From assembly GCA_044892525.1 (NCBI GenBank), contig CM097885.1:25360001-25424000 (forward strand): DNA of 64,000 bases, read 5' to 3'. The notes beneath the pieces were generated by a model. The model saw only the letters and a program-made list of their open reading frames with translations. It was not told the origin of the DNA and ran no database searches. Numbering within the stretch: the stretch's first letter is position 1; each line of letters opens with the position of its first letter. Below, piece by piece: positions 30,702 to 44,927 of the stretch. The position numbers and the translations under genes were made by a program. The DNA comes from Schmidtea polychroa (taxonomy: Eukaryota).

Positions 30702-33295
30702 AGTAGGTAGTTAGTGGCTTACGGCAGCAATAGGGGGGGGGGGGGTAAAAAATGTTGCAAACTTTTGATTGCATAACTTTTTCCGTAGACATTTTTTGAT
30801 TACATAATTGTTGCCGTAATGCCCAATGTTTTCTGGGATTTTAAATACAAAATTTTTTTTTTTTTTTTTTTTTTTTCAATAAACAAGCCAAGGATAAATA
30901 TTATTTGGGTGGGTCTCCTTGGTCCTGAGAATTTCAATAGAAAAAGGTAGTCTCCAATAAAAAAGCATGGATTTTTCACACTATAGTGAGAGAGTCTCCA
31001 TAGTCCTAGGATTTTCAATACAAAAAGACGGTTTACACTAAAAAAGTATGGTAATTCAAGGTCTCAGGTTATTTTCAATACAAAAAGGTGGTCTACACTA
31101 AAAAACATGGTAATTTTTTTAAAATAAAGCAAATTATGGGTCTAAAAATTGGATTACAGTAAATTATGGACCTAAAAATTAAATTAAAGTAAATTATGGT
31201 CCAAATTTTTGAATTACATTAAATATTGGGTCTAAAAATTGAATTACAGTAAACAATGGTCAATAATTTTAATTTAAAGTTAAATAAGTAAATTAAAGGC
31301 TAAATTATGAAATTAAAGGAAACAATGGTTCAAATTTTAAATTAAAGCTAAATGAGTAAATTAAAGTAATAATTTTTAAATAAGTAATGTAATAAGTAAA
31401 TTAAGGTTCAAATTAGTAAATTAAGATCCAAAAAAAAAAATTAAATTAAAGTAATCAATGGGTTCAAATGAGTTAATTAAGGTTCTAAAAAAAAATTAAA
31501 TTAAATTAATCAACAGGTTCAAATAAGTTAATTAAGGTTCTAAAAAAAAATTAAATTAAAGTAATCAATGGGTTCAAATAAGTTAATTAAGGTCTAAAAT
31601 TTAAAATTAAAGCAATCAATGAGTTCAAATAAGTAAATTAAGGTCCAAATATTTAAATTAAAGTAATCAATGGGCTCAAATAACTAAATTAAGGTTCTAA
31701 AAAATAAATTAAAGTTAATTAAGGTTCAAAATTTAACATTAAGTAATCAATGGTAAAATAAAACTTTAAATTAAAGTTAAATAAGTAAATTTAAGTAATG
31801 TAATAAGTAAAAAAAGTTAAAGTTAGATTTTAAAATTTATTTACAAAAGTTGGAATAATAGTTGGTGATTGAGAATTGAAAATTTTAAATGAAAATTTTT
31901 AACGTATATTTTTTAAGATAATTTTTAATAGACATTTTTATGAAATATTTTTCAATGTTAATTTCAGATGAAAATTTATATGAAATATTTTTCAATGTTA
32001 ATTTTAGATGAAAATTTTAATGAAATAATTATTTTTTAAGTTAATTTTTATGAATTATTTTTCAATGTTAATTTTAGATGGAAAGTTTTATGTATTATTT
32101 TTCAATAGTAATTAAAGTTGCAAATCATTGTCAATTAATCATTCACTACATGAAATTATTGGTTAAATATGAAAATAAGGGCTATATTTGGTTGTAAATT
32201 ATGGTAAAAAAATTTAAATAAAGTAATACAAGGATAAATAGGTAAATTAATGTTTTATTTTTAAATTATAGGTTAAATACTTTAAATTAAAATTTATAAA
32301 CAAAAGTTGGAATAACCAACCGCTTCTGAGACATAAAAATTTAAAATAAAATTTTTAAGAAATAATTTTTTAAAGTCAAATTTTAATATAAACTTTTATG
32401 GAATAATTTTTTTAAGTTAATTTTTATTGAAAATATTTATGAAATATTTTTTTTAAGTTAAATTTGAATAGAAATTTTTATGGAATAATTTTTGAAGCTA
32501 ATTTTAAATAGAAATTTTAATGAATTAATAATTGTCAAAGACAAATTTAAATGGAAATTTTAATGAAATAATTTTCAAAGGCAAATTTAGATGCAAATTT
32601 CAATGATAATAAAAATTAATAATAAAAATAATAATAAAAAATAATAAAAATATTAATAATAATTATAATAATAAAAAATAATGAAAATCATAATAAAAAA
32701 TAAAATTAAAAATAATAATAAAAATAATAATAATATTGATAAAAATAATAATAATTATAATCATAATAATAATAATAATAATAATAATAATAATAATAAT
32801 AATAATAATAATAATAATAATAATAATAATAATAATAATAATAATAATAATAATAATAATAAATAAACAATCGGATACCAACAACTATCAGGTACAACTA
32901 GATACCAAGTACATACAACCAACTACTAAGTACCTACAACTATGTACTAACAACCAACTAAGTATTCTTTATTGTATTTTATCAAATGATTTTTAAATTA
33001 ATTTTTTATCTGTCTTCAAAAATATGTTTAATTACAATCAGTAGAAAAAATCTTTTCAAAATGTCTAAATTTAACAAAAATGAATAATTGTCAACTCATC
33101 ACTACTTGGAATTCAAAATAATTTAAATTACAATGAAATACTAATGAATTCTAATTTACAAAACATTCTTCTTTTAATTGATAACTACTGACTTATTATT
33201 GCAAAGTAAAAATCACATTCAATAACTACTTATTGTTGATCAGTTTTATTATATATATACTGAGTTTATCCGACAGGATATTTTGACCCCCTAAG

Positions 33296-33365
33296 GGTAC
33301 AGGTCGTAAGGGTACTGGTCGTAAGGGTATTAGTCGTAAAGGTACTAGTCGTAGGGGTATTGGTA
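33296..33365. repeat. 15-bp tandem repeat (GGGTACTGGTCGTAA-like), mirrored at about 43000-43070
   Basis: Four to five degenerate units read directly. Confidence 0.8.
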
Positions 33366-41100: not shown

Positions 41101-44100
41101 AAATTGATCTTTATTGGGAGAAATCTATCGGGTGATTTTAATTAGTAATTAAATCGGTTGGATATTGGTAAAAATGATCATTTGAAGAAATATGGATAAA
41201 TTGAATCTTTCTATGCAACTACTCAGTTATATTGTACAGTCAAATTTCAAGCAATATTTATTTTAAATTTCGATTACAGTGATTTATTTTTAGAACAAAA
41301 ATTTAATTATAACTGTTTTTTGTCATTAGACTTTATAAATTGTTTAGAGTTAATGATTTTACATGTTTTATAGGGAAATATTCGTGATAATAGGAATTAA
41401 AGATATAATTATAGTCATTTAAACGGGATTTTAAGCAATCCTTTTAGTCTGAGGGAAATATATAGCCTTTTAAGGGTATTTATCGATAAAATACTTATCT
41501 TTAAAGACATTGATATTTCATGGAAATTTGATGCTTTCTAGATGATTTTAGTAGAAAATTTACTTGGATATACCAATTATTGACATTTAAATGAATTTAC
41601 TGGTTTATTAGATGTCATCATTAGTTATCTAGTCTCTTTTGGAATTTAATGATAATTATTTTTATTGTAGATTGTTGACTTTGATAATGGTAATGAATTC
41701 ATACTGAATTTTGTGTATAATTTGAGGAATTAGTAAATAGATTTCAATATACGTGTATTACTTTTAAAAAATAATTAAAATTAATTTATTTCAATTAATT
41801 TATTCAATCTAAATAAATTATCTACTAGATCTTATTATCTTTATTATCTTAGTTGATTAACTTGAATGATTTTAGAAAATTTACTTGGATATACTTATTA
41901 TTGACATTTAAATGAATTTACTGGTTTATTAGATGTTATCATTAGTTATCTAGTCTCTTTTGGAATTTAATGATAATTATTTTTATTGTAGATTGTTGAC
42001 TTTGATAATGGTAATGAATTCATACTGAATTAATTTATTTCAGTTAATTTATTCAATCAAAATAAATTATCTACTAGATCTTATTATCTTTATTATCTTA
42101 GTTGATTAACTTAAATGATCAGTATTTTTTTTATTTACTGGATGATTAATGACTAGAATTTAAAGTTCTTTCGTCCATTACATTTTGTTATTTATTATGT
42201 TTTGAATAATTTAAATTTTTACAATGATTTATTTAATTTTTATCTAGTTATTGGAAAATCATACAAGTACTGGTAATCAGTTAATTAATGAATTGCATTT
42301 TTTTTATTAATTTTTCATCCAATTTTTCAAGTGAAGAGTATTTTCTTTTAAAGATCAATTTTTTATTACATAGTTGTTGGTTGTAAGTATCTGGTTGTTA
42401 ATATTTGGTATCTGATTGATAGAGTTTAGTTGTAGATGATGACAAGAATATATTGCATGTGATGAAGAATATTTTGTATTTAATTGCTATTATTTTTATG
42501 TGTTGTTAGTTGATTGTTGGTACTTGGTATCTTGTATTTAGTAGTTGGTACAGTGTTGTTTACTGATTGTTGTCATATAGTTGTATATATTTGTTAATTT
42601 CTCGATGGGTTTTGATGGTGGTTGTTAGTACATGGTTGTAAGTGTTTAGTATTTAGTTGTTTGAAACCTAGTGGTTAGTACATGGTAGCTAATTAATGAG
42701 TAGGTGGGGATTGAGTGTTACCAATATTGCAAGTGAAGAGGATTTTCTTTTAAAGATATATTTGTTATTACTTGATTGTTTTTACTTGGTTGTTAGTACA
42801 TGTTCGTAAGTTACTGGTTGTTGGTACTAAGTTGTTGGTATCTTGTATTTGGTAGTTGGTACAGTATTGTTTACTGATTGTTATATAGTTGTAGGTTGAT
42901 AATACTTAGTACCAGGTTGATGTTGGTTGTATGTACTTGGTATTTAGTTGTTAGCTGGTTGATGTTGGTTGTTAGTACTTGGTAGGTGGTGGTTGAGTGT
43001 TACCAATACCCCTACGACTAGTACCTTTACGACTAATACCCTTACGACCAGTACCCTTACGACCTGTACCCTTAGGGGGTCAAAATATCCTGTCGGATAA
43101 ACTCAGTATGTATATAATAAAACTGATCAACAATAAGTAGTTATTGAATGTGATTTTTACTTTGCAATAATAAGTCAGTAGTTATCAATTAAAAGAAGAA
43201 TGTTTTGTAAATTAGAATTCATTAGTATTTCATTGTAATTTAAATTATTTTGAATTCCAAGTAGTGATGAGTTGACAATTATTCATTTTTGTTAAATTTA
43301 GACATTTTGAAAAGATTTTTTCTACTGATTGTAATTAAACATATTTTTGAAGACAGATAAAAAATTAATTTAAAAATCATTTGATAAAATACAATAAAGA
43401 ATACTTAGTTGGTTGTTAGTACATAGTTGTAGGTACTTAGTAGTTGGTTGTATGTACTTGGTATCTAGTTGTACCTGATAGTTGTTGGTATCCGATTGTT
43501 TATTTATTATTATTATTATTATTATTATTATTATTATTATTATTATTATTATTATTATTATTATTATTATTATTATTATTATTATGATTATAATTATTAT
43601 TATTTTTATCAATATTATTATTATTTTTATTATTATTAAAAATTATCTTAAAAAATATACGTTAAAAATTTTCATTTAAAATTTTCAATTCTCAATCACC
43701 AACTATTATTCCAACTTTTGTAAATAAATTTTAAAATCTAACTTTAACTTTTTTTACTTATTACATTACTTAAATTTACTTATTTAACTTTAATTTAAAG
43801 TTTTATTTTACCATTGATTACTTAATGTTAAATTTTGAACCTTAATTAACTTTAATTTATTTTTTAGAACCTTAATTTAGTTATTTGAGCCCATTGATTA
43901 CTTTAATTTAAATATTTGGACCTTAATTTACTTATTTGAACTCATTGATTGCTTTAATTTTAAATTTTAGACCTTAATTAACTTATTTGAACCCGTTGAT
44001 TAATTTAAATTAATTTTTTTTAGAACCTTAATTAACTCATTTGAACCCATTGATTACTTTAATTTAATTTTTTTTTAGAACCTTAATTAACTTATTTGAA

Positions 44101-44927
44101 CCTGTTGATTAATTTAATTTAATTTTTTTTTAGAACCTTAATTAACTCATTTGAACCCATTGATTACTTTAATTTAATTTTTTTTTTTGGATCTTAATTT
44201 ACTAATTTGAATCTTAATTTACTTATTACATTACTTATTTAAAAATTATTACTTTAATTTACTCATTTAGCTTTAATTTAAAATTTGAACCATTGTTTCC
44301 TTTAATTTCATAATTTAGCCTTTAATTTACTTATTTAACTTTAAATTAAAATTATTGACCATTGTTTACTGTAATTCAATTTTTAGACCCAATATTTAAT
44401 GTAATTCAAAAATTTGGACCATAATTTACTTTAATTTAATTTTTAGGTCCATAATTTACTGTAATCCAATTTTTAGACCCATAATTTGCTTTATTTTAAA
44501 AAAATTACCATGTTTTTTAGTGTAGACCACCTTTTTGTATTGAAAATAACCTGAGACCTTGAATTACCATACTTTTTTAGTGTAAACCGTCTTTTTGTAT
44601 TGAAAATCCTAGGACTATGGAGACTCTCTCACTATAGTGTGAAAAATCCATGCTTTTTTATTGGAGACTACCTTTTTCTATTGAAATTCTCAGGACCAAG
44701 GAGACCCACCCAAATAATATTTATCCTTGGCTTGTTTATTGAAAAAAAAAAAAAAAAAAAATTTTGTATTTAAAATCCCAGAAAACATTGGGCATTACGG
44801 CAACAATTATGTAATCAAAAAATGTCTACGGAAAAAGTTATGCAATCAAAAGTTTGCAACATTTTTTACCCCCCCCCCCCCCCCCCACCCTATTGCTGCC
44901 GTAAGCCACTAACTACTTACTCACCTT

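Follow-up and report, generated by a model that had tools for sequence, protein, structure and literature searches.

Introduction

Intact vertebrate Mavericks measure 12.7-24.6 kb and carry terminal inverted repeats (TIRs) of 46-1,447 bp with ends of the (AGT)2 type (PMC8097293), and TIRs of 100-1,500 bp are given for Polintons (10.1101/2023.08.22.554363); their replication has been described by a sequence-based model that involves a racket-shaped single strand and protein priming (PMC4196379). Here, we describe a gene-less insertion of 14,220 bp at positions 30702-44921 of a 64,000-nucleotide stretch (hereafter, the window) of contig CM097885.1 of Schmidtea polychroa (C1:25360001-25424000), whose AT-rich genome comprises 781 Mb. 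The element resembles the Polintons/Mavericks (polintoviruses, adintoviruses) in its 6-bp target-site duplication (TSD), in an AGT-type end, in a length within the 12.7-24.6-kb range and in having a sister family that carries pPolB. It differs from them in being gene-less, in having arms of 6.8-7.2 kb and in ends that read AGTAGG instead of (AGT)2; also unlike Polintons, the sister family carries pPolB twice and is devoid of integrase, ATPase, protease and capsid genes. We think it reasonably likely that this is a defective Polinton derivative which depends on a helper and arose by fold-back as a head-to-head dimer, its unit being a non-coding stretch of ~7.5 kb.

Gene-less Polinton derivatives, like the element studied here, are represented in zebrafish by Polinton-1N1 and Polinton-2N1_DR, and the former name occurs in PMC9341505. 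The gene-less form alone is probably not unprecedented. The Repbase entry Polinton-2N1_DR reportedly has TIRs of about 5 kb, in which case the gene-less form with long arms would not be new; the zebrafish elements are not known to have a terminus-bounded centre, to include palindromes with pPolB as their sole gene or to show equalisation of the arms under selection. Adenovirus products in which the left end is present twice around a repeat-flanked centre, gene-less and packaged by a helper, are said to have been obtained by Steinwaerder, Carlson and Lieber in 1999. Such rearranged genomes involve the same class of polymerase, but they are laboratory vectors, neither integrating nor heritable. 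Non-terminal inverted repeats in adenovirus vectors lead to replication-induced recombination (PMC2518115), and the copy-back or snap-back defective genomes of RNA viruses have one end duplicated and depend on a helper (PMC6140465). The end duplication and the single-strand hairpin are common to the element, to these RNA genomes and to self-complementary adeno-associated virus (AAV), but the enzymes differ; moreover, unlike copy-back genomes, the element is an integrating, heritable double-stranded DNA that forms stable genomic families. Long, repeat-rich inverted arms characterise the foldback transposons (FB, Galileo and MULE types), which have TSDs of other lengths and cut-and-paste transposases; the arms are alike, but there is no link to pPolB.

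Full-text literature searches, a scope that leaves Repbase and supplements aside, returned no description of palindromic or pPolB-only Polintons, nor of terminus-bounded centres or of arm equalisation under selection. No such form is described in the available text of PMC6431247, PMC3185507, PMC13027316 or 10.1101/2023.08.22.554363, and the available text of a Dugesia genome study that reports a Maverick expansion (10.64898/2025.12.11.693146) holds no match to 'palindrom' or 'inverted repeat'.

Results

A giant palindrome with a terminus-bounded centre

The left end of the insertion reads AGTAGGTAG and its right end, read inward, AGTAAGTAG, with one mismatch; the terminal motif (AGTAGG/AGTAAG) corresponds to five of the six letters of the common Polinton 5'-(AGT)2. 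The parts of the element, which belongs to a gene-less family designated NC1 with a sister gene-less subfamily, NC2, are as follows:

30696..30701, left copy of the CACCTT TSD, 6 bp
30702..37876, plus strand, left arm, 7,175 bp
30702..32030, plus strand, outer terminus (AGTAGGTAG...) followed by AT-rich repeats of 13-60 bp (sequence comparison)
31927..32710, plus strand, piece of ~784 bp in the repeat region, present in the left arm only (arm alignment; limits approximate)
32745..36403, plus strand, non-coding body, 71-84% identical to NC2
33251..33330, plus strand, motif of ~70 bp, found at 80-86% identity in the inner TIR region of capsid-encoding Polintons and also in NC2
35229-35636, plus strand, C-rich tandem repeat of 45-106 bp within the body (sequence)
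36859..37838, minus strand, inverted copy of the end repeats, equivalent to a degenerate 'right TIR' of a monomer (~75-80% identity)
37877..38168, centre, 292 bp, an imperfect hairpin bordered by two inward-facing AGTAGGTAG termini
38169..44921, minus strand, right arm, reverse complement of the left arm, 6,753 bp
41711..42031, minus strand, piece of ~321 bp between short direct repeats, present in the right arm only (arm alignment; limits approximate)
44922..44927, right copy of the CACCTT TSD, 6 bp

These positions of both ends, the TSD and the centre agree with those of an initial annotation made from the sequence alone. That annotation also described two ~7-kb arms as reverse complements almost as far as the centre; the inverted arms are there, but they are imperfect: aligned globally, and with the centre excluded, the left arm and the reverse-complemented right arm differ by 6 substitutions and 6 indels (4, 9, 18, 54, 321 and 784 bp) over ~6.4 kb aligned. 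Likewise, the location and length of the 292-bp centre stand, but it is no plain loop: both of its ends are inward-facing Polinton-type termini, the left one being the outer terminus of NC2, and the hairpin that it forms together with 20-bp flanks (332 nt) has a folding energy of -118.4 kcal/mol, with a z of -16.8, a stability reached by 0/100 shuffles. With 6.8-7.2 kb on either side of a 292-bp core, the inverted arms do not correspond to Polinton TIRs, which are between tens of bp and ~1,500 bp long and enclose a unique core. The view that the element is made almost entirely of TIR holds for the long inverted arms but not for their make-up: each arm consists of the outer end and repeats, then a non-coding body of ~3.7 kb, then the inverted copy of the end repeats, and a relative of 8.7 kb (L158) has a single body, ordinary TIRs of 1.3-1.8 kb and the TSD GATGAC. 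Because each arm carries inverted end repeats and because this single-body form exists, the palindrome can be described as a dimer of a monomer-like unit.

The arms are devoid of detectable genes

Eighteen stop-to-stop frames of at least 55 aa overlap 30702-38200; three begin in a flanking retrotransposon and the others are short, of low complexity or derived from repeats. When 170 open reading frames (ORFs) from Polinton loci of the same genome were compared with the arms by tblastn, every match was to non-coding DNA of the termini or motifs. No pPolB was found in the arms, either as an ORF or by tblastn, and tblastn and the comparison with NC2 revealed no integrase, ATPase, protease or capsid gene in 30702-44921; these are found in separate elements of the genome. 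When the body was compared with 10 NC2 arms no coding signal emerged: the longest shared open stretch had 41 codons with a synonymous share of 0.09, none of the longer shared stretches was enriched for synonymous change, and 33% of 476 indel lengths were divisible by 3. In the same comparison pPolB, the positive control, gave 332 shared open codons and a synonymous share of 0.52. A decayed gene set and hidden exons of at least 20 codons, for which these comparisons gave no signal, were rejected; exons smaller than this would escape detection. The absence of any ORF beyond those of low complexity, as initially annotated, is borne out, and a decayed full set of Polinton genes, which would have made the locus a broken ordinary element, was looked for by tblastn and against NC2 with a negative result.

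In the C-rich repeat (35229-35643) plus-strand frames are open for 60-95 codons, and for 153 codons in one NC2 copy; lacking a synonymous bias, they are probably compositional. A structured RNA was also considered and rejected, the only Rfam matches being three miRNA-precursor models on the hairpin centre, far under their gathering scores. Among the 24 public runs listed, no RNA run holds sequence of the element.

Dispersed copies integrated as whole palindromes

An internal NC1 22-mer occurs 59 times in forward and 56 times in reverse orientation in the genome (control, 0/0); among the first 100 matches listed, 78 form 39 converging pairs and none diverging, and NC1 amounts to about 50-60 close copies. 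Outer termini number ~630 in the genome. A search with the terminus returned inward-facing pairs, mostly spaced by 15-16.5 kb, and of 32 such pairs among the first 100 matches listed, 22 delimit elements of 13-17 kb and none is shorter than 8 kb. Ten NC1 terminus pairs were fetched. All have inverted arms; TSDs were readable in eight (seven perfect, one with a single mismatch), two of these being the same locus, present on two contigs. Eight pairs contain both inner termini, and the seven centres whose length was computed span 216-299 bp. Copies at other sites thus have 6-bp TSDs of their own, which supports the initial annotation in that the palindrome was integrated as a whole. Overall, 24 different TSDs are found among 25 perfect ones: a palindrome of 13-17 kb integrates whole, with a 6-bp TSD. 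The asymmetric centre is conserved, 40/40 scored matches being at 93-100%.

The locus found on two contigs (C2:62.34 Mb, L045/L046; C76, L047/L048) has the same site and TSD with interiors in opposite orientations, which represents either an in-place flip between haplotypes or an assembly ambiguity. Body sequence was present in 20 of the 24 listed public runs, from 6 studies. The read data over the centre are fragmentary short unitigs from a repeat family, none of which spans the 651-bp centre stretch; contigs from two other studies (X7, X10) cross the join of centre and arm, and none spans the centre.

The terminus pattern of the centre occurs 245 times on the plus and 223 times on the minus strand of the genome, mostly as NC2 outer ends. 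All 10 NC2 elements examined have 6-bp TSDs (nine perfect) and lengths of 13.3-17.2 kb, long arms were seen in nine, and a common centre, an AT-rich, non-palindromic stretch of ~0.9 kb without inverted ends, is likewise present in nine. Because the NC2 centre is non-palindromic, a scan for symmetry axes detected one in only 1/20 stretches. Among 30 centre-type termini inspected, only two adjoin the whole centre module and one more adjoins most of it. The possibility of an inside-out dimer, with the centre terminus outermost, was rejected, such elements being the separate subfamily NC2 with its different ~0.9-kb centre. From these comparisons NC1 appears to be chimeric, combining the ends of pPolB palindromes (see below) with an NC2 body and NC2 termini at the centre.

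Polymerase-only palindromes share the outer end

The best matches of a protein search with pPolB largely form opposed pairs. In 9/9 loci examined these were palindromes with two arms and two divergent pPolB frames, one reading outward in each arm, and with no other ORF of at least 130 aa; they measure 12.8-14.5 kb and have 6-bp TSDs. No integrase, ATPase, protease or capsid gene was found in the pPolB-only palindromes examined. Their pPolB (Pfam PF03175) extends to ~1,300 codons and is split in some, as in the window; a sequence search of the Protein Data Bank (PDB) with pPolB gave 0 matches. The NC1 outer end matches 9/9 of these palindromes at 93-99% over its first 199 bp, and at ~74% over the whole of 30702..32030. 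The Polinton affiliation and the non-autonomy claimed by the initial annotation are supported by this identity and by the absence of a gene set in the arms; that the relatives carrying the polymerase are themselves giant palindromes, one of them within the same window, had been missed. A 22-mer of the palindrome pPolB has 880 genome occurrences (392 on the plus, 488 on the minus strand), which among the first 100 matches listed form 35 converging pairs vs one diverging. Hundreds of pPolB-only palindromes thus share their outer end with NC1.

The centres of the pPolB palindromes, of 477-1,061 bp, have inward AGTAGTATG borders and are related to the capsid-type TIR (see below). The ~70-bp motif at 33251..33330, a candidate cis signal, was not found in 5 pPolB-palindrome stretches. 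At one locus (L115, C1:14594018-14597040) the middle of a pPolB palindrome is occupied by a gene-less arm piece and its centre module, which are arranged in tandem and not inverted; at another (C1:102.69 Mb), one arm of a gene-less copy harbours a pPolB palindrome, and the other arm is not correspondingly lengthened.

The two arms of an element are more alike than arms of different elements

The median substitution rates within vs between elements are 0.0009/0.0055 for NC1, 0.0028/0.083 for NC2 and 0/0.0057 for the pPolB palindromes. Once arms lacking the anchor and the duplicate C76 locus are excluded, the partner arm is the nearest, or tied for nearest, for 16/18 (NC1), 16/16 (NC2) and 18/18 (pPolB) arms, and alleles present in exactly two arms fall within the same element 12, 103 and 16 times, respectively, and between elements 0, 5 and 0 times. 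Two NC2 copies have arms that are 2.6% and 4.5% apart. Symmetry extends outward from the central termini in 60/60 pairs in 8/8 elements; inward it decays, with 25-40 of 40. For pPolB, 36/37 variant codons are always found in both arms and the overall pN/pS is 0.14; variants private to an element comprise 10 synonymous and 5 non-synonymous changes, at a site ratio of 561:2,229 (neutral expectation, ~1:4). Since the variants shared by both arms are mostly synonymous, selection filtered them before they were fixed in both arms. Thus, comparison of the variants suggests that the arms were probably equalised in the replicating lineage and not by neutral conversion after insertion.

Capsid-type Polintons and their copy-back forms

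Capsid-type Polintons of the same genome encode integrase, A32 ATPase, C5 protease, a DJR-like capsid protein and pPolB at the same loci. The capsid assignment has an Atlas score of 0.98, with PF21738 on 15-24% of cluster members. The ends of these elements read AGTAGATGG, their pPolB is 64% identical to that of the palindromes and their length, estimated from TIR positions, is ~18-20 kb. In many copies the integrase gene (e.g., window 22230-22322, L091 and L097) contains an ATT repeat of variable length in which the frame is often kept (poly-Ile), either an intron or a microsatellite. Four of 10 fetched loci were chosen for their opposed ATPase and integrase matches, and 4/4 are copy-back forms in which one end is duplicated over 4.7-8 kb, with variable junctions, 6-bp TSDs and lengths of 13.7-19.0 kb. 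One of the four (L093/L094, C1:98840292-98856409; TSD TTTGTG) is a perfect 16.1-kb snap-back whose fold point falls within the integrase gene, leaving a loop only a few bases long. A 9.4-kb chimera of a pPolB palindrome and NC1 (L157, C1:17303701-17313138; TSD AAGTCG) joins one pPolB to a piece of gene-less body and centre and has a copied-back end of 1.67 kb. A segmented virus with one gene module per palindrome was considered and rejected, as ATPase, integrase, capsid, protease and pPolB co-occur on conventional elements.

Genomic surroundings

The element lies in a four-level nest (19493-49213) in which a capsid-type Polinton was entered by a pPolB element (at 22674), this by a Gypsy retrotransposon (25110-47553) and the latter by the gene-less palindrome:

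19493..22673, plus strand, part of a capsid-type Polinton with packaging ATPase and integrase, interrupted by the insertion at 22674
22674..49213, pPolB element of this same kind but older and decayed (87-89% identity), which received the Gypsy insertion
25110..47553, plus strand, host Gypsy retrotransposon; long terminal repeats (LTRs) at 25110-26114 and 46548-47553, 99.1% identical; pol split by the palindrome
54848..64000, pPolB-only palindrome of 14,250 bp that runs on to C1:25429097; TSD GAAATT; same outer ends

Reverse transcriptase and RNase H of the Gypsy element lie to the left and its integrase to the right of the palindrome (Pfam), in the same reading phase, and the distance between the two CACCTT copies, 14,226 bp, is divisible by 3; this agrees with the initial proposal that removal of the element restores the pol frame. 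The pPolB of the palindrome at 54848 is on the minus strand (56133-59174 and 59159-59902), with the same two-frame split in both arms, and its 1,061-bp centre (61473-62533) is bordered by inward AGTAGTATG ends. This palindrome was itself inserted into another decayed, AGTAGG-ended pPolB element that starts at 53890.

Elsewhere in the window, the gag-like frame of the Gypsy element (26973-28802) has a ubiquitin domain upstream in the same frame (PF00240, E 6e-9), and an intronless actin-like ORF, recognised by eye, lies between two Polinton-derived elements (51725-52933). A gene for an LRR membrane-type protein (PF13855) is found at 16788-18353, and a pair of transposase-like ORFs without a Pfam match at 1552-2881.

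Discussion

As in non-autonomous Polinton derivatives, the end of NC1 is shared with a pPolB element of the same genome, and its copies are non-coding, dispersed and flanked by independent TSDs; as in copy-back or snap-back genomes, one end is duplicated as a long inverted arm and the arms were equal when made. If the element is a fold-back dimer that depends on a helper, an extrachromosomal copy would be replicated from its AGTAG ends by a protein-primed, strand-displacing pPolB acting in trans, for which the pPolB-only palindromes, having the same end, would be the most likely source. At the centre, perhaps with the help of the short inverted ends, a nascent or displaced strand would fold back and be completed on its own arm; alternatively, equal arms could result from repair of a 7-kb panhandle, by which both arms would become copies of one. 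The duplex would then be inserted by the integrase of the capsid-encoding Polintons, and mobilisation in trans by Polinton enzymes would be in keeping with the shared ends and the TSD length. Dimerisation would raise a 7-8-kb unit to near the length of the helper (~18-20 kb) and may permit packaging, a possibility that the size distribution and the 70-bp motif shared with the helper TIR suggest.

Several observations weigh against this scheme. Forms that are extrachromosomal, single-stranded or packaged were not observed, the read data being short unitigs. The NC2 arms are equal though their ~0.9-kb centre is without inverted ends, so that central termini are not required, and since the 8.7-kb monomer-type copy and the 9.4-kb chimera are integrated, a helper-like length is not obligatory. 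Because capsid-type Polintons end differently (AGTAGATGG), and with a pPolB only 64% identical, we infer rather than observe the action of their integrase on AGTAGG ends; no integrase-bearing, AGTAGG-ended element is found among the listed positions. The pPolB sample is small and, being drawn from the best-scoring matches of a protein search, biased to intact copies; 2/18 NC1 arms are nearer to another element than to their own partner; the arms of the window element itself differ by indels of 784 and 321 bp; and the reversed interior at C2/C76 shows that in-chromosome arm exchange, or else assembly ambiguity, does happen.

Much of the same evidence bears on other explanations. The central termini could be internal origins or integrase nick sites of a hairpin-ended replicon in which a ~7.5-kb monomer and the dimer alternate in each cycle, the 292-nt end of the monomer folding back and priming itself, as the internal inverted terminal repeat (ITR) does in the fold-back self-priming of self-complementary AAV. 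Two unrelated centres (292 bp with AGTAGG; 477-1,061 bp with AGTAGTATG) that both start and end with inward termini, the exact symmetry right up to these termini in 8/8 elements and the strong folding of the centre would suit such a replicon. We nevertheless consider it unlikely, as the arms of NC2 and of the capsid-type copy-back forms are equal in the absence of such centres, and none of the 30 centre-type termini inspected, of which only two have the whole module and one more has most of it, belongs to an integrated, centre-ended monomer with a TSD. Alternatively, these could be Polintons of the ordinary non-autonomous sort, with very long TIRs, in which chromosomal gene conversion or crossover after insertion keeps the arms alike; long chromosomal palindromes do undergo conversion, and the reversed interior of the same locus on C2 and C76 would fit this view. 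Neutral conversion, however, would not leave both-arm pPolB variants that are mostly synonymous (10:5), nor does it sit easily with two NC2 copies whose arms have diverged by 2.6% and 4.5% or with the pPolB palindrome nested at C1:102.69 Mb in one gene-less arm and unmatched in the other, and this account, too, seems improbable to us.

The long, modular arms, rich in tandem repeats, might also belong to a foldback DNA transposon from a different superfamily, such as MULE/FB or Galileo, with a mere resemblance to Polintons at its ends. This is largely refuted by an end that is 93-99% identical to that of carriers of a pPolB under purifying selection, by the 6-bp TSDs in all three families and by the AGTAG ends; moreover, no transposase ORF was found in the fetched copies, the search being confined to these and not genome-wide, and we regard such an origin as very unlikely. 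Fold-backs in long reads are known to generate false palindromes, and no read spans the element, but an assembly artefact from such chimeric reads is barely credible here: the flanks show no mirror symmetry and belong to a single retrotransposon that carries on in phase across the element, the copies have their own TSDs (24 different among 25 perfect ones) and arm indels, and the asymmetric centre is conserved in 40/40 scored matches, its join with the arm being crossed by the X7 and X10 contigs.

Returning to a fold-back dimer mobilised by helpers, the elements of this genome can be arranged, tentatively and at somewhat less than even chances, in a three-tier system. In it, capsid-encoding Polintons would provide integrase and capsid, polymerase-only palindromes would replicate themselves, and gene-less palindromes would parasitise the latter through ends taken over from them, all of the satellites being capsid-sized fold-back dimers.

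Arms that are re-equalised over 7 kb would be a direct genetic read-out of a Polinton replication intermediate and provide a simple physical marker for it in the form of snap-back DNA with a defined length. As the pPolB-only palindromes suggest, virus-like transposons can break up into a polymerase satellite capable of its own replication and satellites without genes. In practical terms, the divergence between arms can date insertions, as pairs of LTRs do; hundreds of palindromes of 13-17 kb bear on genome stability, assembly and repeat annotation, and annotation pipelines that demand several Polinton genes would miss them. If true, the three-tier system would parallel, in a natural and heritable form, the self-complementary and inverted-repeat-deleted viral vectors, and would be evidence, at the level of sequence, that the replication of Polintons passes through a folded, single-stranded intermediate.

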